64,000 bases of DNA from Gammaproteobacteria bacterium (GTDB taxonomy: Bacteria > Pseudomonadota > Gammaproteobacteria > Natronospirales > REEB76): positions 75,143 to 139,142 of the forward strand of contig JBAWFA010000015.1 of the NCBI GenBank assembly GCA_049591455.1. Direction: 5' to 3'. The position numbers and the translations under genes are program-made. The number at the start of each line of letters is the position of its first letter. Position 1 is the stretch's first letter. The notes below the pieces were generated by a model, which was not told where the DNA came from, did not search any database, and was given only the letters and a program-made list of their open reading frames with translations. This document shows, piece by piece, positions 9,127 through 39,643 of this stretch.

Positions 9127-9194
9127 TCCGGGTTTCGAATTGAACGAGTCTCAAGGCCAATCTGACGAGGGATCTTCAGTATCGGTGCAGCTCC

Positions 9195-15422: not shown

Positions 15423-15424
15423 TA

Positions 15425-15532
15425 TTATTTGTCTGTCTTCGTAAACTGCAACTTGTCGCTCTTGCGATAGCGCACCGACTTGCAGGTGCAGGCTCCTCCG
15501 AAACTGTGATTGTTGTCGTTGGTAGTCATCAT
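15425..15532 (-). pseudogene. Truncated 5' fragment of a GFA-family gene (35 codons then TAA)
   Basis: Manual translation gives MMTTNDNNHSFGGACTCKSVRYRKSDKLQFTKTDK*. Compare the intact neighbour MMATYNNQVFEGGCTCRAVRYRMIS... DNA similarity runs from the start codon to about 15462. Confidence 0.7.
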
Positions 15533-16573: not shown

Positions 16574-17170
16574 TCACAATTGCATGTAGATATAACCCTG
16601 CTGGCCGTAGATCACCGCATCGGTGAGAGCCGATAGAGTGATGGTGACATCCGGGTTTACCGCGCTGTCGGGTAAATTGCTCTCGGCCAAACCCTGGCCA
16701 CAAATCAGCAGATTAACTCCGGCTTTCTTGAGCGCATGCACGATGGCCAGATTCGGATTATCACCATTGAAGCGGTGACGGTAAAAAGCATTGGTCAAAG
16801 CCGCATAACCCGACTTGCTGTCGAACAGCGCCACTATATGCACGTGCTCTGCTGGCACTTTGGCGTAGGCCATCAGGTTGACCAGCCGGGACAGGCGCAC
16901 CAGCGCGTCGTAATGCCCTGCCGGATCTCGATCATCACTGATGATATCCACAAAAATTTTGTAATCCACTTTCGGGTCCGGGCGCACCGGCAGATCAGGG
17001 CGCGGATGCACACCGCCGACGCCAGGAATCACCGGATAAATCCATTCTGGTCCCGATGACGCCTTTGGTGCCGCCTGCGCCGGCATGGTCACCATCGCCA
17101 GCAGTAGACCGGCCGCCAGTGTACCGCCCAGGGAGACAGCAAAACGCCAATGACTGTCTACGACTCTCAT
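16574..17170 (-). CDS. Secreted DsrE/DsrF-like family protein
   Basis: Signal peptide. The C-terminal ~130 aa (KIFVDIISDD...LLICGQGL...GYIYMQL) resembles COG1416 DsrE-like proteins. Assignment is from memory of the family pattern only. Confidence 0.45.
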   Translation of the reverse strand: MRVVDSHWRFAVSLGGTLAAGLLLAMVTMPAQAAPKASSGPEWIYPVIPGVGGVHPRPDLPVRPDPKVDYKIFVDIISDDRDPAGHYDALVRLSRLVNLMAYAKVPAEHVHIVALFDSKSGYAALTNAFYRHRFNGDNPNLAIVHALKKAGVNLLICGQGLAESNLPDSAVNPDVTITLSALTDAVIYGQQGYIYMQL

Positions 17171-17273: not shown

Positions 17274-18341
17274 CTAATCATTGACATAGACAAACTTCGG
17301 GTCCTTCAGATACATCTCGAGATTCGTGGGGTGGTAATTTGAGTCCTGCCTGTCGAAACGGGCTTTTACCGATTCGTGGATGCCCTGGTTGGTATTGGGA
17401 GCAGGTAGCGGCTGCTTAAGGACGATCTTGCGGACACCAGCGCCAAACCAGCTGAGTACCTTGAACACGCCCGTCACAGAATTGTGCAATACATCGAAAG
17501 GATTCGGTTTCGGACATTGTTGCTGGTCCAGTCTCAGTCCCGCTTGCTCCGCCCGCCGCCACATCCAGGCGAGTGTGTCGTTGGACAAGCCGTCTTCTTT
17601 GTAACCCCCGCCCACATCGCAATGCACGCCCGCGAACCAGGCTTGTTCCAGCACTTGCGTCGCCGGTGCATCCACCTGCTGGGTCCATATACACGGCACG
17701 AAGGTACTGCGGCGTTCGTCCACTGCCAGCGCCTGATAGGCGTAATGCGTGAAGGTACTCAGGTCCGTGTCGTGGAAACGTTCCACCAGCGCTTCCACGC
17801 GCGTGTCGGGGATACCTAAAGAACCTACCGTGTCCCAAACGCCGATGAAATGGATAATGAAATCGTGTGGCTCCGCGAATTCCGGCCATGAATAGGCCTG
17901 GCGGTAATTGCGCGAATGCACCGCGCGCGGATGAGTCTCCAGTCCACGACTGATATATAAAGCGTAAGCTTCCTTGATACGGCTGTAATTTTCCGGCCGC
18001 AGAATGCCAGCACTGCGTATCAGCCCCGAGAGGCTGCGCACCGTGTAGGCGCCGCGGCTGAAACCGAACAGATATAGCTTGTCACCCGGCTGGTAATTCA
18101 GTACCAAGTAGCCGTAGAGATCCTGGACGTTTTCGCTCAGACCCGCGCCGGTGGCACCACTCAGCACACGCCACGCTTGCATACCTTCCGAACCCAGTCC
18201 GATCTGGTAGCAGGAGAGTTGTGGATTACCAGACGCATCCTGCGGCAACAGCGCCGCCTGAAGTTTGACTACATTGGTGGGATTGGCGGCTTCATTGCTC
18301 TCCCAGGTACCGTCCGCAAAAATCGCGATATTTCTGGCCAT
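17274..18341 (-). CDS. DUF2235 (Tle1-like alpha/beta hydrolase) domain protein
   Basis: MARNIAIFADGTW...NPTNVVKL...YLFGFSRGAYTVRSL (GxSxG nucleophile elbow)...HCDVGGGY, the canonical DUF2235 motifs. Confidence 0.7.
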   Translation of the reverse strand: MARNIAIFADGTWESNEAANPTNVVKLQAALLPQDASGNPQLSCYQIGLGSEGMQAWRVLSGATGAGLSENVQDLYGYLVLNYQPGDKLYLFGFSRGAYTVRSLSGLIRSAGILRPENYSRIKEAYALYISRGLETHPRAVHSRNYRQAYSWPEFAEPHDFIIHFIGVWDTVGSLGIPDTRVEALVERFHDTDLSTFTHYAYQALAVDERRSTFVPCIWTQQVDAPATQVLEQAWFAGVHCDVGGGYKEDGLSNDTLAWMWRRAEQAGLRLDQQQCPKPNPFDVLHNSVTGVFKVLSWFGAGVRKIVLKQPLPAPNTNQGIHESVKARFDRQDSNYHPTNLEMYLKDPKFVYVND

Positions 18342-18468
18342 CTGCTACTCCTGCCCGTGGCCTAGCCCCGATGATTAAAGATAGCACTGTACAGCGAAAT
18401 CTCCATATGCAAACGGAACGCCAAATAAGCGGCGCAGTGTAGGTAGCAAAGCCTGATACAAGTACTGT

Positions 18469-22292: not shown

Positions 22293-22330
22293 GGACATAC
22301 GGAAAGTTGCCGATGGTCTATCCTTATGTA
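22293..22330 (+). repeat. HNH-3'-end-derived repeat, copy G (weak, decayed)
   Basis: GACATACGGAAAG...GCCGATGGTCTATCCTTATGT. Compare copy A GATACGAAAG...ACCGTGGTCTGCCTGTATTG. Confidence 0.35.
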
Positions 22331-23218
22331 AGATTTACATCGCCCATCGAGAGAAGCGCGGGAGCGAACATGCCAAAGCATCTTGAAGCAAATCGTAGCC
22401 TGAACTACCCCCTATTATTCCGGATGCTGGCAGGAGTATTTAGCTGTATGCACGGATACCAATTTCAGGCCGTCTTTATACTGACTTGCGCGTTAAGCGC
22501 CTGCGGCTCCAGGCCGCCTCGCGGCACACCACCGCCAAACTTGTACGCCACGACGTCCTACTGGATGAATCCGTATTGGCAAGCGGAGATGTTAACTGCC
22601 ATGCAGTCCGTGGTGCGCCTCCCTGCCAATGCGTCTAGTTCGGCCACACCCCGAATTTATGGAACGCTGAAGTTCCTGTTCGATAACGGGGCCATCAAAG
22701 ATCCGGTGATCGTCACCAGCACGGGCGACCCCGCGCTGGATAAGCTGCTGCTTCAGCAGGTGGTTACGGCGAAGGTACCCAAACCCTTCGGAGCTCATAC
22801 CGACCAAGCCCATGAATTCGAGTTACGGCTCGAGATGTTTACACCGTATGAGACGTTCGAGTACGACTTGAATGCAGCTATAGACAGCAAGAAAGGCTAT
22901 ACCAGGGATGCAATCTTGAAAGGAAACATGGGAATCACGACCGTGGATTTCGACTATCTGGATGGCAAAGCGCTCAATATTGCAGTCGCCAAATCCAGCG
23001 GGCATAAGGATTTGGATCAAATTTCCATCGACACCATATCCGGCGCTATCCTGCCGCCACCGCCTCCAGGTTATGCGGGTAAAACTGTACATATGCAGTT
23101 GATCTTCTGTTACGACATCGTTACTTCCTTCAACCAGCCCGGTAAATGTCCGGTGGGGGGAAATATCATCAGCGTGGAAGGCGCCCGGATTAAGCGTACT
23201 AGCGTAGTTCGTTATTAA
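22307..23218 (+). CDS. Lipoprotein with two TonB-C-terminal-like domains; start uncertain
   Basis: Lipobox ILTCALSACGS. GTLKFLFDNGAIKDPVIVTSTGDPALDKLLLQQV and TTVDFDYLDGKALNIAVAKSSGHKDLDQISIDTI resemble TonB_C folds. The real start is probably an internal Met (MPKH... or MLAG...). Confidence 0.5.
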   Translation: MPMVYPYVRFTSPIERSAGANMPKHLEANRSLNYPLLFRMLAGVFSCMHGYQFQAVFILTCALSACGSRPPRGTPPPNLYATTSYWMNPYWQAEMLTAMQSVVRLPANASSSATPRIYGTLKFLFDNGAIKDPVIVTSTGDPALDKLLLQQVVTAKVPKPFGAHTDQAHEFELRLEMFTPYETFEYDLNAAIDSKKGYTRDAILKGNMGITTVDFDYLDGKALNIAVAKSSGHKDLDQISIDTISGAILPPPPPGYAGKTVHMQLIFCYDIVTSFNQPGKCPVGGNIISVEGARIKRTSVVRY

Positions 23219-23230
23219 CGTCGCACTGAC

Positions 23231-23319
23231 GTGCGGTGATATCTATCGAAAGATTCGCTGGAGCGGCGATACGAAAGCTTCATGCGATAAACCGTGGTCT
23301 GCCTGTATTGCTATTATCG
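23231..23319 (+). repeat. HNH-3'-end-derived repeat, copy A
   Basis: ATCGAAAGATTCGCTGGAGCGGCGATACGAAAGCTTCATGCGATAAACCGTGGTCTGCCTGTATTGCTATT aligns with 32414-32484. In frame it reads LSKDSLERRYESFMR*. Confidence 0.8.
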
Positions 23320-23329
23320 ATTTTGATAT

Positions 23330-24271
23330 CTATTCCGGAATCATTCCGATTGTTTTCAACCACTGCGCCGCCAACCGGGGCCAGCGTGTAATCGGAAGTT
23401 TTGTGCGCCGCAGCCCAAACGCATGCCCGCCGTGCGCATACAAATGCATTTCAACGGGAACCCCAGCGTTCTTCAGCGCGGTGTAGTAAACCAGTGATTG
23501 TTTCACGCCGTCCACGTCGTCGTCCTCGGCCTGCACTAAAAACGTGAGTGGCGTCTCACGGGTGACCGGAACATTGGGATTCAACTTGCCATCATCAGTC
23601 GCGAGGTGGCCCGGATAAATCGCCATGGCAAAATCTGGGCGGGCACTCTTCTTGTCGGCAGCATCTACAGGCGTGTACAGGCGGTGTGCAAAGTCCGTGC
23701 TGATTTCCGCCACCAGATACCCGCCTGCCGAAAAACCGATTACTCCAATCTTGTGGGGATTGATGTGCCATTGCGCAGCATGAAAGCGCACCAGCCTCAC
23801 GGTTCTCTGTGCGTCCTCCAGCGATGGTACCGATATCGAAAGATTGCGCGGACGACAATCGCATTTCCAGACATAAGGCTCACTCGGGACACGATATTTC
23901 AGCAGCACACAGGTGACCCCGATGGACGTCAACCAGTCACACACTTCCGTGCCTTCCAAATCGATGGCCAGTATCTGAAAGCCCCCGCCCGGAAACACGA
24001 CTACAGCAGCACCGGTATTCTTTCCCGTTGGTGAATACACCGTCATCGTAGGCCGTGAGACATTGCCCACGTAAAGCCAAGATTTACCCGCCACCAGGTC
24101 ATTTTTCTCCACCTTCATATACTCCAGCCCCGGCACAGGCTGCGCATCCGGCACTGTTTCCGGCCATATCGGCATCTGCGTGTGCCCTGGCGATGGCTGC
24201 CAGGTCGCCGCGCGAGCGTACAAACTGCTGATTGCCAGTACCAAACAGACAGCGAACATGGATCGTTTCAT
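23330..24271 (-). CDS. Secreted alpha/beta hydrolase (esterase/lipase fold)
   Basis: 313 aa with a signal peptide, oxyanion VVVFPGGGF and nucleophile GFSAGGY. Confidence 0.8.
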   Translation of the reverse strand: MKRSMFAVCLVLAISSLYARAATWQPSPGHTQMPIWPETVPDAQPVPGLEYMKVEKNDLVAGKSWLYVGNVSRPTMTVYSPTGKNTGAAVVVFPGGGFQILAIDLEGTEVCDWLTSIGVTCVLLKYRVPSEPYVWKCDCRPRNLSISVPSLEDAQRTVRLVRFHAAQWHINPHKIGVIGFSAGGYLVAEISTDFAHRLYTPVDAADKKSARPDFAMAIYPGHLATDDGKLNPNVPVTRETPLTFLVQAEDDDVDGVKQSLVYYTALKNAGVPVEMHLYAHGGHAFGLRRTKLPITRWPRLAAQWLKTIGMIPE

Positions 24272-24295
24272 TGTGGGTTCCCAATGAGCTTAATT

Positions 24296-24326
24296 ATGTT
24301 GGGCTTTCTTCGTCAGCCCAACCTAC
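24296..24326. repeat. REP-like palindrome, type 2 (ATGTTGGG...CCCAACCTAC)
   Basis: ATGTTGGGCTTTCTTCGTCAGCCCAACCTAC. Same family as 53436-53517 and 63285-63329. Confidence 0.75.
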
Positions 24327-24330
24327 TGGC

Positions 24331-24428
24331 TGAAGGAAGTGGATGCACCAATGCTGAAATATGAATTGCAGGTACTGCAAAATTCTGAATTGGTTTTCCT
24401 TTTCGGGCTACGGATCGGCCATCAAAAG
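24331..24428 (+). repeat. HNH-3'-end-derived repeat, copy B
   Basis: Translates EVDAPMLKYELQVLQNSEL, versus EVDGPMLKYGLQALHNSEL of the intact gene (32325-32420). It carries CGG (about 24416-24418) where the intact gene has TGA. Confidence 0.8.
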
Positions 24429-24450
24429 AATTCCCCTCATTCTCGCAGCC

Positions 24451-24481
24451 AAAAAAACCCCGCGGGATTTCGTCCGCGGGG
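24451..24481 (-). terminator. Rho-independent terminator of the S9A peptidase gene
   Basis: Minus strand: CCCCGCGG-ACGAAATC-CCGCGGGG followed by TTTTTTT, about 20 nt after the stop at 24500. Confidence 0.75.
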
Positions 24482-24499
24482 CTGTGCAGATGCCGCTGA

Positions 24500-26680
24500 T
24501 CAATGCTTATTGAGTGTCGGTTGCCAGTCCGGCAGTCCGGCGCGCCACAAGGTAAAGGCGATCCAGTCGGCCGCCAATTCGTCACTTTGCGTGCGGGTCG
24601 AGCCGATGCCATGACCGGCCTGCGCATCGATGCGCAACAGCACCGGATTGGGCGAGCCAGAGGCCATCATCGCCGCGGCGAATTTCGCCGGTACCCAAGT
24701 AGCCACGCGCGGATCATTCAAACCCGTCGAGATCATGATCGCCGGATAAGTGGTGCCCTTCTTCACGTGCACCAGCGAATCCATGGCGTAGAGATCCTCG
24801 AAGCCCTGCTTGGTCTTGATGCTTCCGAATTCGGGAATGTTAGGCGGCCCGTTGGGCGTGAACTCCATGCGCAACGTATTGGCAGCAGGTACCACGTCCA
24901 TCACGCCGGCGAACAGATCGGGCGCCTCTTCCATCGCGCGACCCATGGTGATGCCACCCGCCGAGCCACCGAGGATGAAAAGTTTCTTCGGGGTAGTGAT
25001 GCCCTGGGCCACGAGATATCTGCCGCAGGCGATCAGGTCTTGCCAAGTGTTGTGCTTGTTGGGCCCCTTGCCAGCCATGTACCAGGCCTGGCCCTTGATG
25101 GCGCTGCCGCGCACGTGACAGATACCGTAGCCGATGCCTTCCTTCATGAACACCGCGCGGCGCGAGCTGAAGTCGGCCATATTGGTGATGCCATAGGAGC
25201 CATAGGCCTCGAGCACTACGATGCCGGGCCGCTTGGCGCCTTTGGGCTCGACCAGCGACAGCGGCACCATGACGCCGTCATGCGACTTGGCCTGAAGATC
25301 GCTGACCACGTAATTCGCCGCGTTGATGGGTCCGTGAACGCCCAGATGCAGATCGGCAAACTCGCCGCCCTTGGGATCATAGCGATATTCAGTGGGCGGA
25401 ATGACCCAGCTCGAAATCTCGAACGTGATGCCGGCCACGCGTGGATCGCTGAACACCTCACCGACATGGCCCTTGATGGGCAGTGCGATGTGCTCGATCT
25501 TGTCGGTGCCGGTCGGTACACGCAGCAGATCAGAATAAGCGCCGTTTCGCGCCAGCACATACAGTCCGTCGGCGGCGGCGTGGATGTTTTCGATCACCCG
25601 GCCAGACGCTTCCGGCACCAGCACCTTGGCCGAGGCCAGCGGCTTGCCCGCCTTCACCTCCAGCACTTTGAAATTGGACGCATCCTTGTGCGAAAGCAGG
25701 AAGATCCGGTCGCCGCGAATATCCAATCCAGTCACGTCGTTGTCGCGATCAACGAACAGCTTCCACGGCGCGTTCGGGTTCGATGCGTCAGCCACCGGAG
25801 CGGTCCACAACTTGACCTCGTTCTGCACACCGTTGATGGACGCCAGAACCGCGATTGGAGAGTTGGGCGTGAGCTGGATCGCGGGGGTCTCGTCAGGCGC
25901 GAACGTCGCGTGCTTGCTAACGCCATTACCGGCGACGGGCACCGGTGCCGAGGCGAGATTCCAGGCGACTGCGGTCGGGTCCTTGTATTTGTCGAGCGGA
26001 CTCTCGCCGGGCGCGAGCTTCTTCAGGCGGATCCAGTAGAGCGTTTTCGAATCCGGGCTCCAGCTGGTGGCGCCGAATTCGGCGCGGTCCAGCGGGCCGG
26101 CGATCAACTTGCCGCTGGCGGCATCGTAAACGCTGATCGAGGCCGCTTCCGAGCCGCCCTCGGAAACACCGACCGCGACCTTGGAGCCGTCGAATGAGGG
26201 CAGGAAATAGTTGACCGCGTAGGGCTTGCCACCATTGGCTTTCATGATCGCTTCGATATCGACGATTTTGCGCGTGCCGTGCGCGTCGCGCACCATCACG
26301 TCGAAATTGTTCGCGCCGGGCTGACGCTCTTCATAGAACTCACGCCCGCCATAGACCGAGTAATCCGAGATCGCGTCGAAGCTGCCGGTGAAAGCGGAAA
26401 CCCGCTGGCCCAGCGCCGCGCGCCCGGGAATCGAATCCATCAGCGCGCGGGTATAGGCGCCCTCGGCTTTCATCCAGTCGATGGTCTTGGGCCCGAGCTT
26501 TTCCATGTAGCGGTAATCGTCGGTGACCTTCCGGCCCCAGAGCGTTTCCGTGACCGGCTGCGCGGACGGAGGCGGCGGCTGGGTCGTCGCTGCGACCGAT
26601 GCCAGAGATACGGCAGCCAGCAGCGGCAAAAGCAGGCTCTTCAGAAGCAATGTAATAGACAGGCGTTGATGGAAAATCAT
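24500..26680 (-). CDS. Prolyl oligopeptidase (S9A) family serine peptidase, secreted
   Basis: 726 aa with a signal peptide. N-terminal VTDDYRYMEKL motif, a propeller, and nucleophile LGGSAGG. Confidence 0.85.
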   Translation of the reverse strand: MIFHQRLSITLLLKSLLLPLLAAVSLASVAATTQPPPPSAQPVTETLWGRKVTDDYRYMEKLGPKTIDWMKAEGAYTRALMDSIPGRAALGQRVSAFTGSFDAISDYSVYGGREFYEERQPGANNFDVMVRDAHGTRKIVDIEAIMKANGGKPYAVNYFLPSFDGSKVAVGVSEGGSEAASISVYDAASGKLIAGPLDRAEFGATSWSPDSKTLYWIRLKKLAPGESPLDKYKDPTAVAWNLASAPVPVAGNGVSKHATFAPDETPAIQLTPNSPIAVLASINGVQNEVKLWTAPVADASNPNAPWKLFVDRDNDVTGLDIRGDRIFLLSHKDASNFKVLEVKAGKPLASAKVLVPEASGRVIENIHAAADGLYVLARNGAYSDLLRVPTGTDKIEHIALPIKGHVGEVFSDPRVAGITFEISSWVIPPTEYRYDPKGGEFADLHLGVHGPINAANYVVSDLQAKSHDGVMVPLSLVEPKGAKRPGIVVLEAYGSYGITNMADFSSRRAVFMKEGIGYGICHVRGSAIKGQAWYMAGKGPNKHNTWQDLIACGRYLVAQGITTPKKLFILGGSAGGITMGRAMEEAPDLFAGVMDVVPAANTLRMEFTPNGPPNIPEFGSIKTKQGFEDLYAMDSLVHVKKGTTYPAIMISTGLNDPRVATWVPAKFAAAMMASGSPNPVLLRIDAQAGHGIGSTRTQSDELAADWIAFTLWRAGLPDWQPTLNKH

Positions 26681-26857
26681 GGTCGAGACCTCCGGGTTAC
26701 GTCACGCCGGTATAGGCGTGATCGTGAGCTTGCACCATTAAAGCGCAAATCGTTGTTTACTGCATCACCAACATCAATACTTACCAATGGGAATACTGTC
26801 TTAGTCGTGGAAGCCAACAGGATCATTCGAGGTAATTCAAGGAGCCTCTGATTTATT

Positions 26858-26927
26858 CGTCGTACCCGCGAACGCGGGTACCCAGGTTCTTGATTATTCT
26901 GGATTCCCGCTTGTGCAGGAATGACGG
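26858..26927. repeat. Two inverted REP-type palindromes, type 1 (the 'VIPAKAGIQ / WIPACAGMT' type)
   Basis: CGTCGTACCCGCGAACGCGGGTACCCAGG (26858-26886) and CTGGATTCCCGCTTGTGCAGGAATGACGG (about 26899-26927) are reverse-complement relatives of each other. A short TTCTTGATTATTCTGG piece resembling the HNH-repeat tail lies between them. Confidence 0.75.
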
Positions 26928-26950
26928 AAACGGAATTGATCAGAGCTTCC

Positions 26951-27016
26951 TTAACAGATCCTGCATTCGGCGAAGCCGCTGGCGAAGGGTTTGCGGTCCT
27001 TTTCGGTCATGTGCGC
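26951..27016 (-). pseudogene. Displaced 3'-end fragment (21 codons + stop) of a paralogue/allele of gene 29523-30545
   Basis: Reverse translation gives AHMTEKDRKPFASGFAECRIC*, versus the intact C-terminus YAHMDQKGREAFAGGFAECGIH*. About 80% nt identity by eye. Confidence 0.75.
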
Positions 27017-27017
27017 C

Positions 27018-27070
27018 GAGCGAAGATATCAACGCTTCATGCAATAAACAGTCTGCTGCCTCATATCGTC
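27018..27070 (+). repeat. HNH-3'-end-derived repeat, copy E
   Basis: GAGCGAAGATATCAACGCTTCATGCAATAAACAGTCTGCTGCCTCATATCG reads ERRYQRFMQ* plus tail. It abuts the fragment at 26951-27016. Confidence 0.75.
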
Positions 27071-27091
27071 ATGTGTCAATACAAAACTCCC

Positions 27092-29377
27092 TCATTTACC
27101 GGGATGGTAAACGCGTTCTGTGTGGCCCTTGAGTTGATCGGGCCAGAAGTACACGGTGCGGAGATCGCCGCTGACGTAACGGGCAGCCTGGTCGGTGAAA
27201 TGCGGGTATTTCGGATTGCCGCTGGCGCCGCCGACATGGATCGCGCGTGCGCTCACCTTTGGACCGAAATCAACTACCGCGACAAAGCTATTGCCGTCGT
27301 TACCGTAATACTTCTTGGTACCGGGCCACGTGTGCGCGCCGAACGAGGCCAACGAGCCCCAGCGTGAGGAAGTGAACGGCACCGCAATGCTGGGTTTGGC
27401 ATCGTCGAAATGCGGTTGGATCGAATCATCGAGGCGCTGGTAGCGGTTGATCTCGCCCCACGGCACACCCCAGTAACCGAAATCCGTCTTGAGTTTATCG
27501 ACCGCTTCGGCGAGTGCTGCAAGACGCACCTTCGGCGTGGCCTTTTCGGCGATGTAGTCGTACGTGCGCATGACATAAGTATGCGAGTCGAGGCCGCTGG
27601 CACGAGCGTCGGCGCCGACCTCATCCCACAATGTGTCGCCCCAGAACACCGCGACCGAAGTCGGGATCGAGGCAATGCCCCAGCGATAATCCCAATGGCG
27701 TAACACCCCGATCGGGCCGGCCAGTTTCGCTTTCAATGGGTCACTCGCGGGCAGGTCGTCGTAGTCCTTCACCAGAATCGGGATCAGTCGTGCGAACGCG
27801 GGCAGATACGAATCGAAGGCATCGGTGATCAGCTTGGCGCTGGTGAAATCGCGTGCGCCATTCAACATGAGCAGCGCATGCTTGCTGCGCGGATTCGGGC
27901 CGAACATATCCATGTACTGCGGATAGTCGGCAGCTTTCGGGCTGTACTTGCCGGCGGCCGTCCACGGCCAGTCGTTGGTATTGAACACCCAGCCATTGGG
28001 CGGGTTCATCACATTGGGCATGTCCTTGAGCGGCGTCAGGCCCTGCCATGCTGTGGCGGGATTGCTGCCGTCCACGGGCTTCATGTAATCGAACCGGTTA
28101 TTACGTTTGGGGATGAACTGCGGCACCAGAAACGCGATTTCGCCCTTGTCGTCGGCAAAGATGGTGTTGTTGGACGAGTTGGCTTGGAGTTGTGCAATCT
28201 TCATGTAGCTCGCAAGGTCGGTGGCCTTGGTGCGCAGCCAGCTTTGTTCCAGTGCGGGGATCGGTTCGTTCATCAGCGCCTCGGCAATCCACTTGCCATT
28301 TTCCTCCGCGACGATTGGCCCGGGTTGGGCGAAATACGCAGTGAACCTGCGTGACATCATCGTGCCGTCCTTGCCGAGGTAGCGGATGGTGATCACGCGC
28401 GTTTTTAGCGGCAACAGTTGTTTGCCGAAACGATAGAAATATCGGTCGTCTTGCTTGACGCCGGTTTCGGCGAACTGATCCACCGCATCGACGCCGGTCG
28501 AGGTGTGCATCCAGCCGACGTGCTTGTTAAAACCCTGATAGATGAAAAACTGGCCCCAGGTCGAGGCGCCGTAGGCGTCGAGTCCCTGATCGCTCGACAT
28601 CTGTGTCTCGTCGCGGAAATTGAAGGTGACGTGCGGGTTGATCAGCAGCAAGGCGTGGCCGTCGGCAGTCAGCTTGGGTGCGATCGCGATGCCATTCGAG
28701 CCGGTCGCCGCTTGCCATGTTGCGGGCTTGGTATCGGCCAATGCCAATGCAGTGGCGCGGTCAGCGCCGTAGAACGTCGCAAGTTTGGCCAGGTTCACAC
28801 GGGTGATATCGCCGCCGATACTACCCTCGGTGAAGGCCAGCGCCATCCACGGCTGGTACTGCTTGATGACCTCGGGGTGGATGCCGGGGTGTGTGGCCAG
28901 GTACCAGTTCATGCCGTCGGCCCAGGCGTTCATGAGCTGTATCAGCCATGCGGGACTTTTGGCGTAGTCCTGCTTCAGCACCACCGGGTCGATGAAAAGT
29001 TGTTCGCGCAGGTCCTCCCAGATGGCCGCCTCGCCCTTTGCCTGCGCGGTCCAGCCAAGCGCCAGCAGGTAGTTGTTCTCGACGCGGCTGAAGTCATCTT
29101 CACACTGCGCGTAGATCATCCCGAATACCGCGTCGGCATCGGTCTTGCCGTGCACATGCGCGATGCCCCAGTTGTCGCGGGTGATCGTGACCTGCTGCGC
29201 TTCGCGTGCGAGGCGGGCGTATTCAGGAGTGTTCCGGGTGACCGGGATTCGCCACGTCGCAGGGGCGTCGCTATCGGTGCGTGCGGTTGCCGCAGCGGCC
29301 GTGCCCGGTGCCAGCAAGATGGCAACTCCCAGCGCACACGCAAATGCAAACAGACTGCAGCGAATATTGGATGGCAT
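27092..29377 (-). CDS. Penicillin acylase (S45, Ntn-hydrolase) family protein, secreted
   Basis: 761 aa with a signal peptide and a predicted autoprocessing site ...ATG|SNGIAIAP (N-terminal Ser nucleophile of the beta chain). Family-typical length. The substrate (beta-lactam, acyl-homoserine lactone, other) cannot be told from sequence. Confidence 0.8.
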   Translation of the reverse strand: MPSNIRCSLFAFACALGVAILLAPGTAAAATARTDSDAPATWRIPVTRNTPEYARLAREAQQVTITRDNWGIAHVHGKTDADAVFGMIYAQCEDDFSRVENNYLLALGWTAQAKGEAAIWEDLREQLFIDPVVLKQDYAKSPAWLIQLMNAWADGMNWYLATHPGIHPEVIKQYQPWMALAFTEGSIGGDITRVNLAKLATFYGADRATALALADTKPATWQAATGSNGIAIAPKLTADGHALLLINPHVTFNFRDETQMSSDQGLDAYGASTWGQFFIYQGFNKHVGWMHTSTGVDAVDQFAETGVKQDDRYFYRFGKQLLPLKTRVITIRYLGKDGTMMSRRFTAYFAQPGPIVAEENGKWIAEALMNEPIPALEQSWLRTKATDLASYMKIAQLQANSSNNTIFADDKGEIAFLVPQFIPKRNNRFDYMKPVDGSNPATAWQGLTPLKDMPNVMNPPNGWVFNTNDWPWTAAGKYSPKAADYPQYMDMFGPNPRSKHALLMLNGARDFTSAKLITDAFDSYLPAFARLIPILVKDYDDLPASDPLKAKLAGPIGVLRHWDYRWGIASIPTSVAVFWGDTLWDEVGADARASGLDSHTYVMRTYDYIAEKATPKVRLAALAEAVDKLKTDFGYWGVPWGEINRYQRLDDSIQPHFDDAKPSIAVPFTSSRWGSLASFGAHTWPGTKKYYGNDGNSFVAVVDFGPKVSARAIHVGGASGNPKYPHFTDQAARYVSGDLRTVYFWPDQLKGHTERVYHPGK

Positions 29378-29451
29378 CGGTCTTCTCCCGAATCGCGTGG
29401 CGAATGATCTTGATCTTACGCCACAGGTGTAGATAGGAATAATGAATAATT

Positions 29452-29478
29452 GGGATCAGTCTGTCCCCATTTATTCGC
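29452..29478 (+). repeat. HNH-repeat tail-only copy F
   Basis: GATCAGTCTGTCCCCATTTATTCG. Compare the tails CCGTGGTCTGTTCCCGATTATTCC (C) and ACAGTCTGCTGCCTCATATCG (E). Confidence 0.45.
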
Positions 29479-29522
29479 AGTGTCACTCCACGGCAGCGAG
29501 AATTTGAGTCGTGCCGACAAAC

Positions 29523-30545
29523 TCAGTGGATCCCGCATTCGGCGAAGCCGCCGGCGAAGGCCTCGCGCCCTTTCTGGTCCATGTGCGCGTAGAGATATTT
29601 CCTCGCTGCACAGACTTTCAGTGCGTGGGGGTCCTTGTGTTTCAGTGCTGCCACCATGTCGAGCTTGCCGACAGGTGCGACATTACCCGGGCAGGTATAG
29701 CGTCGGTACGAATCACCTTTGGTGGTCAGCTTGGCTTTGTCATTACCGCACCAGACCGTGATGTAAGGATCGTCGGCATTCAAATCCCAGGGCCGATCGT
29801 TGACCAAAGTCATGGAGTCGGTCAACACCGTGATGGGCTGATAGAAACCGTCCGCATCGGTCTCCGGAAACGAATCTCCGCTTTTCGTCGTGGTTGTCGG
29901 CACTGGCCGGTTAGCCTGGTGGCAGGCGCCGCATTGATTGAGCCGGCGAAACTCCGCCATTTCCTGCTTGGCCTTGGCCGGCGCACCCGGATAGTAGAGT
30001 TTGAGCAGACTGTCGGCAGCCAGATTGTCGCCCGCGGGCCCGGTGCGCAGCCATGCGAAACCACTCAGCCATTTGGATGATTGGCCGGGAACCGGCTCGT
30101 AGACATGCCACCATGTTTTGCCGTTGGCGGCGATCATCGCGCCGCGCACATCGGAGATGCCATTGACCGTAAACATCGCTTGTATCTGTTTTTCGCCGCC
30201 ATCGATGCGGTCGGCCACGGTGCCCGGTGGGAATTTCAAGGTATAACGCTTCTGGTCAGCAAGCCACTGCACGCCGACGTTCTTGCCTGCCGGAACACGC
30301 AGCCAGACCATGACGTATTCATGAATGCTCTTGTCCGTCGGCAACCTCACGGGTGGTTCCATTTCCACGAAACCGGACTGCTGCCAGTGGCTAATGCTGT
30401 TGGGAATGCGAACCGCATGCAGTTGAATGTTCTGAGCGCAGACCGTGAGCGGACACAGCAACGCCAGCAAGCCGGCAACCCACAACCATCCCGGGAGCGC
30501 AGTCAGGGTGAGCCAGCAAATCGGCGGGTGCGAGAGCTGCTTCAT
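29523..30545 (-). CDS. Secreted hypothetical protein with a single CXXCH haem-c-type motif
   Basis: Start moved to MKQLSHPPICWLTLTALPGWLWVAGLLALL (RBS AAGAGGAAG upstream). Motif NQCGACHQ. No family recognised. The longer listed ORF (to 30710) would overlap repeat C and the next gene. Confidence 0.6.
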   Translation of the reverse strand: MKQLSHPPICWLTLTALPGWLWVAGLLALLCPLTVCAQNIQLHAVRIPNSISHWQQSGFVEMEPPVRLPTDKSIHEYVMVWLRVPAGKNVGVQWLADQKRYTLKFPPGTVADRIDGGEKQIQAMFTVNGISDVRGAMIAANGKTWWHVYEPVPGQSSKWLSGFAWLRTGPAGDNLAADSLLKLYYPGAPAKAKQEMAEFRRLNQCGACHQANRPVPTTTTKSGDSFPETDADGFYQPITVLTDSMTLVNDRPWDLNADDPYITVWCGNDKAKLTTKGDSYRRYTCPGNVAPVGKLDMVAALKHKDPHALKVCAARKYLYAHMDQKGREAFAGGFAECGIH

Positions 30546-30606
30546 GGGCTTCCTCTTTGGAATGGCTTCGAGTTCAGATTGAGCGGTATTGTTGCATGAA
30601 ACATGT

Positions 30607-30683
30607 TTAAGGAAGTGGATGGACCGAGGAGCGGAGATATTAACGTTTCCTGCCATAAGCCGTGGTCTGTTCCCGATTATTCC
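30607..30683 (+). repeat. HNH-3'-end-derived repeat, copy C (internal ~90-bp deletion)
   Basis: TTAAGGAAGTGGATGGACC joined to GAGGAGCGGAGATATTAACGTTTCCTGCCATAAGCCGTGGTCTGTTCCCGATTATTCC. Both halves align with 32325-32343 and 32430-32484. Confidence 0.8.
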
Positions 30684-30690
30684 CAGCATT

Positions 30691-31485
30691 TCATAATTCG
30701 CTATTCGCAAACTCCTCCGCCACGGCCCGAATTAATAAGATCATGTTAACAATGTCACCGTCTATTTGAAATTGCATCGGATACGTGTTTCCTATTTCAT
30801 CAATAAATAACGGTTCGAACTTTCCTAATCCATCAATTTCATCATGAACCTTCATGGCCCCATCAAAGTCACCATTTTTAAACATCGTATTGGCCTTACT
30901 TTCTAACCCTCGATATAGCAATACTTCCTCCGGTGTTAGAACACTTGGTGCTACATAATTTGGAATCCTGTGCGCCGCCGGGTCGCGTATAGTTTTCATG
31001 CCCTCATGCCACTGCTGATAATTTTTGAGTACCTGGCTCAGTGCTACATACCGTTTTCCTATGCGGGAAATAAAGCCGCCATTAAATAATCCAATTTTTT
31101 GTGGTGTCTTCTGCAATAAATCTAACGGATAGATAACAAACTCGAACTCCAATGCCCATGCAAGATTGTCTAGCACCCCCCTTATATGCAAATAAAGTGA
31201 ATTCAGATGTAAATCCAAATTAATCTGCTCACTATTATTTAGTGGCTCTTTTCTATCATTTTCTATCACTTCGTAGAGTGCTAAATAATTTTGCTGAATT
31301 ACGCGTAACCTTCTTGCAATACCAAGAATCATATAACGTTTAGCGTATTCATTCTTGCGATTATGACCAATTCGAATGCAAGCGACTATTTCGCTACTAA
31401 TCGCTGCATTAAGAAAAATAAATGCTAGATGTGTTCCTAGCTCGTGAGCTTCTGGAAGCCGAGAAAGATTATTAATAGCTGACAT
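30691..31485 (-). CDS. Hypothetical protein, AT-rich, with an Rx4H motif (possible HEPN-like)
   Basis: 264 aa, all-helical-looking, IRDPAAHRIP at about residue 165. Divergent from the HNH gene across a 63-bp gap. No family recognised with confidence. Confidence 0.5.
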   Translation of the reverse strand: MSAINNLSRLPEAHELGTHLAFIFLNAAISSEIVACIRIGHNRKNEYAKRYMILGIARRLRVIQQNYLALYEVIENDRKEPLNNSEQINLDLHLNSLYLHIRGVLDNLAWALEFEFVIYPLDLLQKTPQKIGLFNGGFISRIGKRYVALSQVLKNYQQWHEGMKTIRDPAAHRIPNYVAPSVLTPEEVLLYRGLESKANTMFKNGDFDGAMKVHDEIDGLGKFEPLFIDEIGNTYPMQFQIDGDIVNMILLIRAVAEEFANSEL

Positions 31486-31548
31486 TTATAATGCTCCGAA
31501 GAACAAATATTTATGCTGACATCTTAAAAATTCAGCTATGCTAATAGC

Positions 31549-32412
31549 ATGCCGGAACAAAAGTGGGATACCAAGGTCAGGCTGAGAGCCTTCCAGTGGC
31601 TGGACCACGTATCACCAGCACATGAGGATATTTTACCCAGAGCGGTACTACAGGATGGCTTTGAGCTGGGTGGGCAGCGAATCCATTTGATGTCGCCCCA
31701 AGGCATTTTTACCCCGCAAGGCTGCGATTACCCAATATCCATCACCACCGTCATGAACGGCCCGTACCCTGATCGATTCGAGGATGTCCATCGCCTCTCC
31801 TATCGGTATCGGGGCACAGACCCGAATCACCGCGACAATGTCGGACTACGCAACGCTATGCGTAATGACATACCGCTGGTGTATTTCTTTGCCGTGGCTC
31901 AAGGCCGCTATCAGGCTATCAAGCCGGTTTATGTAACCGGCGATGATCCAATGCGTTTAACATTCACGATCATGGCGGATGTAACAAGGACGTTTGAGAG
32001 CGCAATCGCACTAGAGTCAACAGTTGCCGATCCCGTACGCACAGAGCTGCGGCGCCAATACGCGACTGCGGCCGTGCAAGTCAGATTACATCAGGCTTCT
32101 TTCCGGGAACGGGTGCTGGATGCCTATCGGACCCACTGCGCCATGTGCCGACTCAAGCATCGGGAATTGTTGGATGCGGCGCATATCATCCCTGACGCTG
32201 ACCCCGGCGGGCATCCAGAAGTCTTTAATGGTCTCTCCTTATGCAAGATTCATCATGCCGCCTTTGATCGTAGGATCATCGGCATCCGGCCAGACTACGT
32301 GATCGAAGTGCGAGAAGACGTACTTAAAGAAGTGGATGGACCTATGCTGAAATATGGATTGCAGGCGCTGCATAATTCAGAATTGCTTTTGCCTTCCAGA
32401 TCTGCGGATTGA
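31549..32412 (+). CDS. SRA/PUA-like N-terminal domain + HNH nuclease (COG3440-type putative type IV restriction endonuclease). It ends at a TGA 16 codons before the ancestral stop (TAA 32458-32460).
   Basis: HNH core CAMCRLKHRELLDAAHIIPDADPGGHPEVFNGLSLCKIHHAAFD. N-terminal YRYRGTDPNHRDNVGLRNAMRNDIPLVYFF pattern. After TGA 32410-32412 the frame continues PSKDALERRYHSFVR*, which is conserved in repeat copies A and E. Confidence 0.75.
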   Translation: MPEQKWDTKVRLRAFQWLDHVSPAHEDILPRAVLQDGFELGGQRIHLMSPQGIFTPQGCDYPISITTVMNGPYPDRFEDVHRLSYRYRGTDPNHRDNVGLRNAMRNDIPLVYFFAVAQGRYQAIKPVYVTGDDPMRLTFTIMADVTRTFESAIALESTVADPVRTELRRQYATAAVQVRLHQASFRERVLDAYRTHCAMCRLKHRELLDAAHIIPDADPGGHPEVFNGLSLCKIHHAAFDRRIIGIRPDYVIEVREDVLKEVDGPMLKYGLQALHNSELLLPSRSAD

Positions 32413-32484
32413 CCATCGAAAGATGCGCTGGAGCGAAGATATCACAGCTTCGTGCGATAAATCGTAGCCTGTTCCCTATTACTC
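32325..32484 (+). repeat. HNH-3'-end repeat, master copy D (native 3' end of the gene + ~25-nt tail)
   Basis: Reference sequence to which copies A, B, C, E, F and G align. Confidence 0.8.
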
Positions 32485-32494
32485 TATTTATTTC

Positions 32495-33010
32495 TTATCT
32501 CCGCATTGACCCCGACAAACAACCGAGAATATCTTTGCCAGACTCATAGCCGTTGCATGTCTCGAAATAACTAGCGTTTGCCGGAAGAACACCTTCATGC
32601 GCAAAACTGTTTCGCTAGACAATTACATTACCATAAGAAGATTTAACACTAATTTTTTTAGAAACTAGAGACTTCTTCTCACATTTTTCAAGTGACTCAG
32701 AAAGTCTTCTTACATATTTTTCACCAAATTTTTTAACATGAAGTTCCTTTAGATCATTTAAGGATATTCGGCCATTAATGCGATCAAACACGCTACCACA
32801 ATATATGCCAAACGATTTGTGTTTTTTTTCAGCGAATGAAATGAATATATCCTTAATGCACAGTTCTAAAACGGTAACGACTGATACGCATAGAAACCCG
32901 ACGTAGTGATTGCGCAAAAAAGGATCGGCGAGCCCAGGTATAACTGTATCAAGATGAATAATAAGCCGATCTAGTGGTTCGAAACGGTCGGTATACACAA
33001 CCGTATTCAC
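32495..33010 (-). pseudogene. HEPN-family (RiboL-PSP/MAE_28990-like) nuclease gene interrupted by in-frame TAG at 32615-32617
   Basis: ORF 32615-33010 ends ...SSYGNVIV*. The same frame continues RNSFAHEGVLPANASYFETCNGYESGKDILGCLSGSMRR* to TAA 32495-32497, so the Rx4H catalytic motif lies immediately after the stop. GTGA start/stop overlap with the DUF262 gene. Confidence 0.65.
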
Positions 33011-34086
33011 TCGATTAGATGACTTTTCGCCGCCTTGAATCTTTCCTTCACAACAGCAACGTCGCTGGTACTATATAAAGTAGCTTCGTTAAATTTTTCA
33101 TCCTTTACAAGATCAGAGTATCTAGTACCAAGATTAGCAGGTATCTTGCGTCTATTCATAAGAATAGTTGCAAGTACCGAATCAAGTGCTGACACATTTA
33201 GACGACCGCCTCTCAAGTGAAATGGCTTTTCTGGTAAGTACTGAACCGTTTTAGCACATATCTCTGGAAATGCTTTAGAGAATTCAATCGCCTCTTTTGT
33301 GTCCCCAGATTGATGATTAAGCATCGCATTATTTAAAAACTCCTTCATCGGCTTCTCATATTTTTCAAATCCATAAGTAAGAGCAAAAATACGGAGTACA
33401 AGCTCTACATCTTTCTGGTGCCGATCAAAAGTATTTTTACCAACTAACTTTCTCCAGTTCTTATCTTGATTAGCTTTTCGCAAAACATTGACGATTCCAC
33501 CACGAAAGACACAATTTCGAATTTCCTGTGGCTTTAATGGAGTTCCGCCAGTATTTAATCTTTCGAAGATATGATAAATGCTTGTTTTTTCGCCTTTAGG
33601 ATTCATCTGCCTAATATTGATAGCGCGTAATACAGCCCCCTTCAATTTGCGCTGGTCACTTTCACCAAGGTCAGCAAAAGATTTTTTCGAGAATGGGCTC
33701 TTGTCACTAAGTCCTAAAAGACGAAATACTTGCTTCTTTCCTTGTATTGACTCTTCTCCAAAATACCCATCCATGAAATATACAATGGACATCATTCTTT
33801 AAAGGCCATCAATTACCAAACTGCGATTTTCATCGTCAACGTATAGGAACATCTGCGGTACAGGTAATCCCATCAAGAAAGATTCAATTAACAAGGACGA
33901 CTGATATATTGTCCATACAAAGTTTCTCTGAAAATCAGGGACGATCAAATCGCCTGAATGCCACATACTATGAATCCCACTCAATGTAAGATCTGACGGG
34001 TATGCGGTAATATCATATGGAACATATGGCTCATCGTCCTGCGCTTCTTCGACAACGCTTAGCTCATCTTCTTGGACTTGACTCAT
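33007..34086 (-). pseudogene. DUF262 (ParB-like nuclease/NTPase, GmrS-type) gene interrupted by in-frame TAA at 33799-33801
   Basis: ORFs 33799-34086 and 33007-33795 are in the same frame, separated by TAA + AGA. The junction reads VIDGL*RMMSIVYF, where the family signature is DGQQR. Upstream is VPDFQRNFVW, the DUF262 motif. Confidence 0.75.
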
Positions 34087-34272: not shown

Positions 34273-34405
34273 TCAGGGATGTTGGATTGATCCGTAAACG
34301 ATGGCAAACATTATTCCGCCGAAGATGCAAAGTATGTAGGCCGCGATCACGACGATGGCGAATATCCCCATGTACTTCCACGGGGATTTCTGATGCCGGA
34401 GCGCG
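34273..34405 (-). pseudogene. Displaced 3'-end fragment of the 4-TM membrane-protein gene 35221-35661
   Basis: Translates (M)EDALRHQKSPWKYMGIFAIVVIAAYILCIFGGIMFAIVYGSIQHP*, versus intact EDALKHQKSFWKYLGIFAIVMIVAYIVIIIGGIAFAVIYGLGHHP*. About 75% nt identity by eye. Confidence 0.8.
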
Positions 34406-34429
34406 TCTTCCATGTCCCAAGCTATATAC

Positions 34430-35220: not shown

Positions 35221-35661
35221 TCAAGGATGATGGCCCAATCCATAAATAACGGCAAAAGCTATTCCGCCGATGATGATAACGATATATGCCACGATCATAA
35301 CAATCGCGAATATTCCCAAATACTTCCAAAAGGATTTCTGGTGCTTGAGGGCATCTTCAAGCGCGGCCTGCCCGGACGCCGGGATGCGTGTAATGGCATT
35401 GCCATAGCGCATCAGATACAGGCAGGGAATCAGATAAAAGAAAACCGCCATCAGGATATAAAGAATCCCAAAGACAGGGCCGAAAACCGGCGACAGTCCG
35501 GATCGCGCAGGCATGGCAGAGAAGCCCGCGAACATGACCAGTCCGGCGAGCACCATGAACGCCATCACTACGAACCCCAGGATCGCGAGAAATTTCACCC
35601 ACGGACGCGTGGCATTCAAGGCGTCCAGCATGTCATCTGAAACTACGATTTGCTCGGCCAT
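35221..35661 (-). CDS. Small polytopic (about 4 TM) membrane protein, hypothetical
   Basis: 146 aa. WVKFLAILGFVVMAFMVLAGLVMF..., FGILYILMAVFFYLIPCLYLMRY..., C-terminal FWKYLGIFAIVMIVAYIVIIIGGIAFAVIYGL. Confidence 0.6.
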   Translation of the reverse strand: MAEQIVVSDDMLDALNATRPWVKFLAILGFVVMAFMVLAGLVMFAGFSAMPARSGLSPVFGPVFGILYILMAVFFYLIPCLYLMRYGNAITRIPASGQAALEDALKHQKSFWKYLGIFAIVMIVAYIVIIIGGIAFAVIYGLGHHP

Positions 35662-39525: not shown

Positions 39526-39643
39526 CTACATGTTCCTTCGGTATTCCCCGCCCACTTCATACAGCGCATGACTGATCTGCCCTGGCGTGTTGTACTTCAC
39601 CGCTTCCATCAACGAAGTGAGGATGTTCTTGGGGTCGCGGGCG
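39526..39643 (-). pseudogene. Displaced icmF 3'-end fragment (F1; 38 codons + stop)
   Basis: Translates [39 protein letters not shown], versus the intact icmF end [38 protein letters not shown]. About 80% nt identity, with differences mostly at third codon positions. Confidence 0.85.

Follow-up and report, generated by a model that had tools for sequence, protein, structure and literature searches.

Solo copies of repeats of the repetitive extragenic palindrome (REP) or terminal inverted repeat (TIR) type are usually taken as inert litter or as small regulatory elements, and, to our knowledge, how the enzymes linked to them, the REP-associated tyrosine transposases (RAYTs) and the TIRYT enzymes, act on solo repeats is still unknown. 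REPs and REPINs are short extragenic repeats tied to an IS200-like Y1 transposase (Bertels & Rainey 2011, PMC3116915; Bertels et al. 2017, PMC5581495). In its passages on TIRs, the study of Di Nocera, De Gregorio & Rocco (2013, PMC3733652) describes tyrosine-transposase genes ("TIRYT") that are flanked by TIRs and not by REPs ("TIRtrons"); these TIRs have the sequence GGGGWSAS in common and occur as singles, dimers, and clusters. Here, we analyzed a 64-kb stretch of DNA from an assembly of an uncultured gammaproteobacterium (GCA_049591455.1, contig JBAWFA010000015.1, positions 75,143 to 139,142), referred to as the window in its full length, in which a gene for an HNH nuclease is preceded by a series of shortened copies of its own 3' end. 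It is well supported that these copies, five or six within 14 kb, are eroded stumps of earlier HNH genes, each still joined to a solo TIR of ~27 nt. Because the stumps end in a transposon-end repeat, the locus is best described as a hypervariable gene-swapping spot built on transposon ends rather than on an integron- or phage-style site. The repeat class, hypervariable loci, and pseudogene stumps are already known. New are a restriction-type HNH gene that is fused to a solo transposon terminus, the array of stumps resulting from this fusion, and a right-end-anchored signature of the repeat family, which bears on what RAYT and TIRYT enzymes do.

Stumps of the HNH gene and their terminal repeats

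The HNH_2 (PF13391) nuclease gene is located on the plus strand at 31549 to 32461. Its open reading frame (ORF) at 31549 to 32412 matches PF13391 with an E value of 8e-11 (domain residues 197 to 246), and the gene is free of frameshifts and reads ..PSRSAD-TGA-PSKDALERRYHSFVR-TAA, i.e., an in-frame TGA at 32410 to 32412 (codon 288), at a position where close homologs have Q or R, precedes the natural end at 32461. The close homologs have a length of 303 aa and end in ..PSKDALERRYQSFLR or ..LLLPSRTADQPSKDALERRYQSFLR; the TGA cuts off the last 15 residues, which are conserved in all of them. The window gene may be a fresh pseudogene, may contain a sequencing error of the metagenome-assembled genome, or may still be functional. 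The protein has a weak match to TagI (6ghs), matches the PADLOC HNH model, and scores below the cut-off of a phosphorothioate-restriction model; it appears to resemble restriction-type HNH enzymes and not known homing enzymes.

Using blastn with positions 32200 to 32490 as the query against the whole window, we identified five diverged copies (G, A, B, E, and C) upstream of the near-intact HNH gene (D), all on the plus strand. The matches are at 24330 to 24429 for B (80% identity, E 4e-20), 23245 to 23301 for A (82%, E 6e-11), 22344 to 22402 for G (78%, E 1e-7), 27018 to 27048 for E (87%, E 6e-5), and 30628 to 30682 for C (76%, E 2e-5), the latter together with a piece at 30607 to 30625. A second piece of G at 22313 to 22335 corresponds to HNH codons 224 to 240 (E 0.002), and G thus has an internal deletion. 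In the comparison with shuffled controls that an earlier note on this DNA had proposed, none of 100 shuffles gave a match in the case of C. E was also recovered by nhmmer, but had been part of the nhmmer model. We found no further copies in the remaining ~50 kb of the window by blastn, nhmmer, or motif scan, and the motif scan detected no TIR copies in the window outside 18.3 to 32.6 kb.

An alignment of the copies shows that their best-kept part is the HNH stop codon together with ~27 nt beyond it (AAAYCGTGGTCTGTCCCCTATTATTC), with an outer edge that reads ..TATTATTC. In D, this TIR (32457 to 32484, plus strand) overlaps the HNH stop codon (ATAAATCGTAGCCTGTTCCCTATTACTC). Relic G (22303 to 22420) consists of HNH codons 224 to 240, the internal deletion, the last 16 codons with the stop codon lost, and the TIR at 22390 to 22420. 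Relic A (23243 to 23319) retains the last 16 codons, the stop codon, and a TIR with a small insertion (23287 to 23319), and ends 11 nt before the stop codon of the alpha/beta hydrolase gene (abh). In relic B (24330 to 24445), HNH codons 259 to ~290 (LKEVDAPMLKYELQVLQNSEL..) are followed by a deletion and the last ~16 nt of the TIR (24430 to 24445). The conserved right flank of the B site is a terminator-like hairpin with a T run, as read from the sequence, at 24455 to 24487 on the minus strand downstream of the peptidase gene S9-726. Relic E (27018 to 27071) comprises the last nine codons, the stop codon, and a degenerate TIR (27043 to 27071), and ends 21 nt before the acylase stop codon, while relic C (30607 to 30682) starts with the initial 19 nt of the LKEVDG segment, continues after a deletion with the last 10 codons and a TIR (30655 to 30682) with 2/22 mismatches, and ends 8 nt before the stop codon of a HEPN-like gene.

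Three further sites are less clear-cut. F (29455 to 29476, plus strand), 46 nt before the stop codon of a CXXCH protein gene, is a TIR remnant that lacks an HNH coding part; its match to the TIR core has 6/22 mismatches and is by itself not significant, and F is accepted only because a repeat-like sequence adjoins the CXXCH stop codon in two relatives (L002 and L007; L-numbers are our labels for other loci and contigs). A degenerate solo TIR at 18356 to 18377 (plus strand), 15 nt upstream of the start of a Tle1-like gene, forms the left edge of the hypervariable region. Its 6/22 mismatches to the core are at chance level in the window taken alone; it is backed by the same sequence directly before the HNH gene in L195 and by a good TIR copy past the S9-674 stop codon in L002 (993 to 1016). 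Finally, 32593 to 32612 (plus strand; CTTCATGCGCAAAACTGT..; repeat family D5), 5 nt before the stop codon of a RiboL-PSP-type HEPN gene, is a weak candidate for a further degenerate stump.

These data modify several statements of the earlier note, which had counted about seven same-orientation copies. Five are significant by blastn, including G, which had been called weak, and F drops to a repeat remnant. The distances of 7 to 71 nt between the copies and the stop codon of the following gene hold, and this gene is on the minus strand for every copy except G, which precedes a plus-strand TonB-like gene. The proposal that the copies diverged in ways that keep the peptide is convincing only for the LKEVDGPMLKY.. 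part of B: differences among the copies number 21, 18, and 28 at codon positions 1, 2, and 3, respectively (P = 0.09), and an origin of the copies from different functional alleles is not demonstrated by this test. B and C start at the same HNH codon (TTAAGGAAGTGGATGG; 24330 and 30607), as had been noted. The discrete left boundary read from this coincidence is not upheld since the relics of relatives have other left ends; it is the right boundary that is discrete. By eye, TTAAGGAAGTGGATGG is loosely like the repeat core AAACCGTGGTCTG, a resemblance that may be a coincidence or may reflect a deletion hotspot or a transposase pseudo-site. Inspection by eye of the left ends of the stumps for a specific short sequence, as a possible left cleavage site, revealed none.

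The stumps are strongly asymmetric. In at least eight HNH stumps (five in the window, L192 7419 to 7537, copy i of L199, and the D site of L007), the 3' end and the TIR are retained, and there is no 5' stump among them. If either end were lost equally often, this bias would have a probability of ~0.004 (0.5^8, our own arithmetic). The stumps are 22 to ~120 nt long in the window, 119 nt in L192, and 354 nt in L199, compared to 912 nt for the full gene.

The repeat family and its association with the HNH gene

The same repeat is present in relatives without an HNH coding part, always on the same strand and abutting the stop codon of the next gene. Such sites include L002 993 to 1016 (after S9-674) and 4278 to 4308 (after DsrE), L004 7750 to 7779 and 6813 to 6839, and several in L007. 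Searching metagenomes with the degenerate 22-nt pattern CGTRGYCTGTYCCCNATTAYTC returned at least 120 matching stretches, compared to ~10 or fewer expected by chance according to a rough hand estimate (not computed by a tool) that assumes ~1e12 bases. Among the matches listed, to which all results on metagenomic loci given here refer, the consensus is (A)AAAYCGTGGTCTGTCCCCTATTATTC, and in 21 of ~120 loci the motif adjoins a gene of ~240 aa whose product starts MPRRARxxLPNVPLHLIQRGNNRQ. This gene carries the motif as inverted repeats, with one copy 45 to 55 nt upstream of the ATG and a second one immediately past the stop codon; in L108, L116, and L158, these are GAATAATAGGGGACAGACCACGGTTTT and AAAACCGTGGTCTGTCCCC, respectively. 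The protein matches Pfam Y1_Tnp (E 4e-12) and is related to REP-associated tyrosine transposases, with 63.4 bits against a cut-off of 80 for NCBIfam REP_Tyr_transpos. The reverse complement of the motif core, GGGGACAG, fits the GGGGWSAS consensus as given in the TIR passages of PMC3733652. On sequence grounds, the repeat appears to be the solo terminal repeat of a Y1-transposase element of the TIRYT/RAYT-like type. This lends substance to the suggestion in the earlier note of an uncharacterized recombination site, in the form of a solo TIR fused to the HNH stop codon.

Folding of eight copies as DNA on both strands gave no significant hairpin (z scores of −1.25 to +1.6), a repeat search of the window found no inverted repeat pair inside any copy, no Rfam family matched the motif in the window and nine further loci, and the literature returned only an unrelated primer match for the motif sequence. 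The viral contigs contained a single match, and a viral origin of the motif was rejected on this ground. We also rejected a plain genome-wide scatter of REPs because, in addition to the confinement of the window copies to 18.3 to 32.6 kb, there were no TIR matches in 981 kb of 64 unrelated genome loci.

The metagenomic copies have a common footprint. Of 63 motif pairs that have the same orientation within a contig, 13 have at least 12 nt, and up to >200 nt, of left flank in common, and none have right flank in common. In L086 (reverse strand, 427 to 1660), a full transposase gene and its TIR precede a 5'-truncated copy of 386 nt with a TIR, and a 60-nt copy with a TIR comes next; each of these nested copies begins immediately after the preceding TIR end. 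L076 appears to have the same nesting at the opposite end of the element. Short partial re-duplications, which involve the last 8 to 20 nt, very commonly follow the motif directly. Left-flank-only sharing, nested copies, and partial re-duplications together identify the motif as an element end; each new copy keeps the outer end, reaches inward to a varying extent, and is placed precisely at an outer end that was already there.

Within the HNH clade, the stop codon of the gene directly joins the inner edge of the TIR in the window, in L192, in L196, which is a different genomic context, and in the L007 stump. A degenerate TIR follows the HNH gene in L195 and L004, and only the first half of a TIR does so in L200. 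Homology between contexts extends from ~17 to 23 nt before the ATG to just after the stop codon, while the upstream partner gene is not conserved. The homologous segment includes CTATGCT, a −10-like hexamer 7 to 9 nt before the ATG (window 31533 to 31548, L002, L004, L192, L198, L199, and L200), which is kept in nearly every HNH context and suggests that a transcript with no leader, or with a very short one, travels with the gene. Given the fusion of the stop codon to the TIR inner edge in this clade, the short promoter, the HNH gene, and the TIR probably travel as a compact unit. There are no HNH homologs near the motif in 522 kb of metagenomic TIR loci among the matches listed, and the HNH-TIR link is therefore lineage specific and limited to this HNH clade. 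A conserved two-gene HEPN-HNH system was considered and rejected since the upstream partner of the HNH gene differs in every context except L002.

L199, also a different genomic context, contains two intact HNH genes with 88% nucleotide identity and a 5'-truncated one (codons 186 to 302), all on one strand and with other genes between them; close by is a truncated Y1 transposase gene, preceded by the motif at a distance of 52 nt. L199 is a living counterpart of tandem HNH modules. L199 also has a second repeat of ~30 nt (ATGTTGCAATGCGAGACCTGACCCTGAAT) with at least eight occurrences in 13 kb, including just after HNH copies (e.g., 1476 to 1511, 4716 to 4746, 7951 to 7980, 10936 to 10970, 12044 to 12072, 12515 to 12544, and 12812 to 12847). 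Motifs of the CTGACCCC type, which by eye are similar to this second repeat, adjoin the main motif in several metagenome loci.

Unit turnover between relatives and the origin of the stumps

We compared the window with four related syntenic assemblies (L002/L006, L007, L192 to L194, and L195), which have ~70 to 87% nucleotide identity over aligned genes. The variable interval extends from the Tle1-like gene (17274 to 18341) to the MeaB-mutase gene (40571 to 44062), and the hypervariable region of the window, at 18.4 to 40.5 kb, consists of gene-sized units parted by same-orientation solo TIRs. Between the relics (22457 to 30545), these units are the TonB-like gene on the plus strand and, on the minus strand, the genes for the alpha/beta hydrolase, an S9 peptidase, a penicillin-amidase-type acylase, and the CXXCH protein. 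In L195, the interval contains the HNH gene only. L002 has S9-674, abh, DsrE, S9-726, RibD_C, CXXCH, HEPN, and HNH; L007 has S9-674, bla, TonB-like, abh, a DsrE-homologous stretch, S9-726, RibD_C, and CXXCH, with no intact HNH gene; and L192 has bla, TonB-like, S9-726, two small genes, and HNH. The relatives thus differ by whole units, in agreement with the cassette-array-like appearance described in the earlier note, and the comparative synteny that it had suggested finds unit-level presence and absence to vary among L002, L007, L192, and L195. The GC content at third codon positions (GC3) differs between units as well (0.63 to 0.78 for the array genes, 0.35 for HEPN, and 0.56 for HNH), as had been estimated by eye.

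Several relics recur at the same position. Relic A is located directly after the TonB-like stop codon in the window, L007, and L192, and the HNH piece of G is common to L007 at the same position. A B-site relic precedes the S9-726 terminator in the window, L192, and L007, in each case followed by the hairpin described above; each of the three retains a different part of the gene and has another left end. In L192, which lacks the abh unit, a single relic combines the left part of A with the right TIR half and flank of the B site, and the junction thus falls within the repeat. A longer relic in L192 (7419 to 7537) lies beside the HNH partner gene in a position similar to that of C, although the partner genes are unrelated, and begins 18 nt further in than B and C. 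At the D site of L007, the HNH gene is cut to ..GTGATCGAAGTGCGA joined to TAAACCGTGG.. (in the longer reading, ..GTGATCGAAGTGCGA joined to TAAACCGTGGTCTTTCCCCTATTATTCT) by a deletion between two GTGCGA microhomologies, and the TIR has a single mismatch. As judged from these comparisons, units come and go at TIRs, and the same-position relics (A, B, and G, and C probably) are shared across species and differently eroded. HNH-TIR units were probably added several times and then decayed over a span exceeding the divergence of species with ~80% nucleotide identity. Separately, the 5' end and promoter region of S9-726 in L002 is duplicated upstream of the CXXCH gene (7192 to 7260 versus 9065 to 9132; 81 to 86%), which is another junction duplicate in the hypervariable locus.

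The HNH stumps have the same asymmetry as the repeat family, i.e., the TIR and the 3' end are kept and the left extent is variable. From this likeness, we infer that a transposase made the stumps. A Y1 transposase supplied in trans would act on a single TIR end and copy or move a segment whose right end is fixed and whose left end varies; the segment would be placed next to an existing TIR end and would then be eroded further by ordinary deletion. The mechanism itself, in which a Y1 transposase in trans carries out the copying or insertion with the TIR as the anchor and ordinary deletion comes afterward, is tentative, with the chances that it operated here nearly balanced by the chances that it did not. 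We regard the explanation as a whole, comprising stumps, TIR-bounded units, and transposase-made copying, as reasonably probable. A bolder version, in which a TIRYT-class Y1 (HUH) transposase working from a single TIR builds same-orientation arrays of units by copying or moving inner DNA of variable length exactly to the outer edge of another repeat, seems rather unlikely to us. If true, it would represent a single-strand, HUH-based counterpart of integron cassette arrays or of ISCR gene capture, with the HNH gene as the usual passenger that seeds new arrays (the window lineage, L004, L196, L199, and L200).

Several observations weigh against transposase-made copying. By tblastn, there is no Y1 transposase gene in the window or within ±10 kb of the locus in the relatives, and this genome gives no sign of recent activity; the stumps are old and evolve in an approximately neutral way, and same-site relics have by eye ~70% identity to each other. 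G, C, and the L007 D site have internal deletions, and E is fused to a fragment of another gene, so plain deletion clearly contributes; it could explain everything if TIR-proximal DNA were harder to lose. The units between the stumps are whole genes with stop codons abutting the preceding TIR, an arrangement not predicted by random left truncation. The coinciding left boundaries of B and C are left without explanation. Moreover, the 63 motif pairs are within contigs and not independent, with ~8 to 9 independent loci contributing.

Deletion is at the center of the alternative that we take most seriously, even though we judge it improbable on balance: a passive graveyard, in which HNH paralogs arose by ordinary duplication or horizontal gene transfer and decayed by random deletion without any transposase, the 3' ends surviving because they abut the stop codon or terminator of a convergent neighbor or because the TIR is selectively retained. 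The internal deletions in G and C, the microhomology deletion in L007, the fusion of E to a CXXCH-gene fragment, the different erosion of same-site relics between species, and the 12% difference between the intact tandem paralogs of L199 all fit this alternative, as does the lack of a nearby transposase. However, it leaves unexplained why all of the at least eight stumps are 3' stumps, why several unrelated contexts have the HNH gene joined to a transposon end, and why the repeat family as a whole has left-flank-only sharing and nested truncated copies. Among the three explanations offered in the earlier note, tandem modules of cargo and HNH gene with deleted nuclease genes fit best, in view of the tandem copies in L199 and the stump at the D site of L007. 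Another, serial site-specific integration at the HNH 3' end with surrogate ends, as for e14 or phage 21 at icd, would account for direct repeats of the 3' end of a gene and for a single insert of gene size in each interval, and the TIR as the common core could serve as the crossover site. We consider it a remote prospect: the displaced ends lie upstream of the intact gene, while the model places them downstream; the stumps have internal deletions and variable left ends and recur, differently eroded, at the same positions in other species, including L007 without an intact HNH gene; and the array contains no integrase. The only tyrosine recombinase in the 64 kb, among all ORFs of at least 110 aa scanned with Pfam, is XerD (5772 to 6731; TIGR02225, 402 bits versus a cut-off of 330), a housekeeping gene beside dsbC ~16 kb from the array. 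The earlier statement that the window lacks an integrase and an attC-type palindrome is therefore accurate for an integron integrase and for a fold, with XerD as the exception.

An integron-like cassette array with the repeat as an attC-type site can practically be dismissed. Most units are single ORFs, the sites have one orientation and immediately follow the ORF, the arrangement is divergent with respect to the gene that ends the array, and relatives differ by whole units; against this, neither strand of the repeat forms a significant hairpin, there is no IntI (integron-integrase models score 132 versus 265 and 96 versus 435 on XerD), and the motif is instead the terminus of Y1-transposase genes. 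That the HNH nuclease is a homing-type enzyme, which recognizes solo TIRs and copies its own gene beside them, is a slim possibility. The adjacency of the HNH gene and the TIR in at least five contexts and the compact unit, with homology from shortly before the ATG to just after the stop codon, would suit such an enzyme, but the protein appears closer to restriction-type HNH enzymes than to known homing enzymes, homing depends on homologous flanks at both ends and the left flanks are not the same from one context to the next, and the metagenomic TIR loci listed are free of HNH homologs. Very little probability attaches to the idea that the repeat is kept for a host function, i.e., as a 3' untranslated region, terminator, or protein-binding element for the minus-strand genes, with an incidental similarity to the HNH gene. 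It would fit the location of the repeat 0 to 46 nt after stop codons in the window, relatives, and metagenomes and the near-perfect copies at C (two mismatches) and the L007 D site (one mismatch). It is at odds with the lack of a predicted structure and an Rfam family, the decay of many copies (five to eight mismatches), an orientation that is fixed to the array and not to the gene (the TonB-like and HNH genes are on the plus strand), and the HNH coding parts (codons 224 to 240 and 259 to 290), which are not explicable as incidental.

If copying from TIR ends proves true, it would provide a testable model for domesticated-looking transposases and a route of gene capture and island building that is not currently recognized. 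The locus and the metagenomic copies show three features: the repeat family has a footprint of a constant right end, a variable left extent, and new copies exactly at an existing repeat end; the same repeats border gene-sized units that vary between related species; and a defense-type nuclease gene is fused to such a repeat and found with it in several unrelated genomic contexts. If the mechanism is wrong, the locus still documents the history of a hypervariable spot in stumps of a nuclease gene.

Neighboring genes and comparison with known systems

Left of relic E, a 3' fragment of a CXXCH paralog (26957 to 27023, minus strand; direct repeat D6, 78% identical to 29529 to 29595; tblastn E 2e-4) comprises the last 22 codons in 67 nt and is fused to the relic by deletion, which indicates that a second CXXCH-(HEPN)-HNH-type module was once there and was removed by deletion. 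The gene divergent from the HNH gene, for an Rx4H (HEPN-like) protein (30691 to 31485, minus strand; GC3 of 0.35), is common only to L002 (61% amino acid identity). It is part of a low-GC islet (30691 to 34086; GC3 of 0.30 to 0.41) with three defense-type genes, the others being the RiboL-PSP-type HEPN gene (32615 to 33010) and a GmrSD/NsnA-like gene that is split into two ORFs (33799 to 34086 and 33007 to 33795) and is probably a pseudogene. PADLOC made no defense-system assignment for the HEPN-like, CXXCH, or RiboL-like proteins. To the right, a direct repeat of 138 nt (34273 to 34410 versus 35221 to 35358; 74%) looks like a fragment of a paralog of a 146-aa membrane-protein gene, of which L192 and L194 have two full copies, and a stretch of ~117 nt at 39527 to 39643, another repeated intergenic segment on the right side of the variable region, matches L002 at 15416 to 15528 and 16946 to 17061 and one place in L007. 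The window also contains a tRNA gene (3724 to 3808) and the dsbC-xerD pair (4949 to 6731).

Compared to known systems, the duplicated gene 3' ends bordering inserted DNA are like those of e14 and phage 21 at icd, but here no integrase is present, and the copies are stumps left by deletion, located on the side of the intact gene opposite to that expected. Integron arrays are likewise made of single-ORF units in one orientation, with a site after each ORF and whole-unit differences between relatives; here, IntI and the imperfect attC hairpin with its R''/L''-L'/R' symmetry are missing, and the site is a transposon terminus. IS91 and ISCR elements reportedly capture genes by one-ended rolling-circle transposition and are said to have one end that is constant and lies immediately past the 3' end of a gene, another end that varies, partial copies anchored at the constant end, and captured genes upstream of the 5' end of that gene, all of which resemble the locus described here. 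Unlike in those elements, an HNH_2 gene and not a HUH Y2 transposase gene is beside the constant end, an ori or ter of that family is lacking, and any transposase would have to act in trans. The HNH protein itself is like restriction-type HNH_2 nucleases (TagI, 6ghs; phosphorothioate-dependent, ScoMcrA-like enzymes) in its HNH_2 domain, its weak match to TagI, and its match to the PADLOC HNH model, and the window copy differs from them by the premature stop codon and by an N-terminal domain that has no family assignment.

Short repeats located mostly after genes, often as inverted doublets, and linked to a Y1 transposase are also typical of REPs and REPINs with their RAYTs. A REP is an imperfect palindrome of 20 to 40 nt, whereas the motif here is not palindromic and its transposase falls below the NCBIfam cut-off for RAYTs, and the array here is made up of one-orientation singlets that carry neighboring coding sequence. 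The closest match is with the TIRtrons as covered in the TIR passages of PMC3733652: the motif forms inverted repeats at fixed distances around a Y1_Tnp gene, conforms to GGGGWSAS, and has single, paired, and clustered intergenic copies. Those passages do not mention right-end-anchored truncated copies. The locus described here differs from TIRtrons in that the stop codon of a restriction-type HNH gene is joined to a solo TIR, HNH stumps accompany several solo TIRs, and the copies delimit gene-sized units in one orientation.

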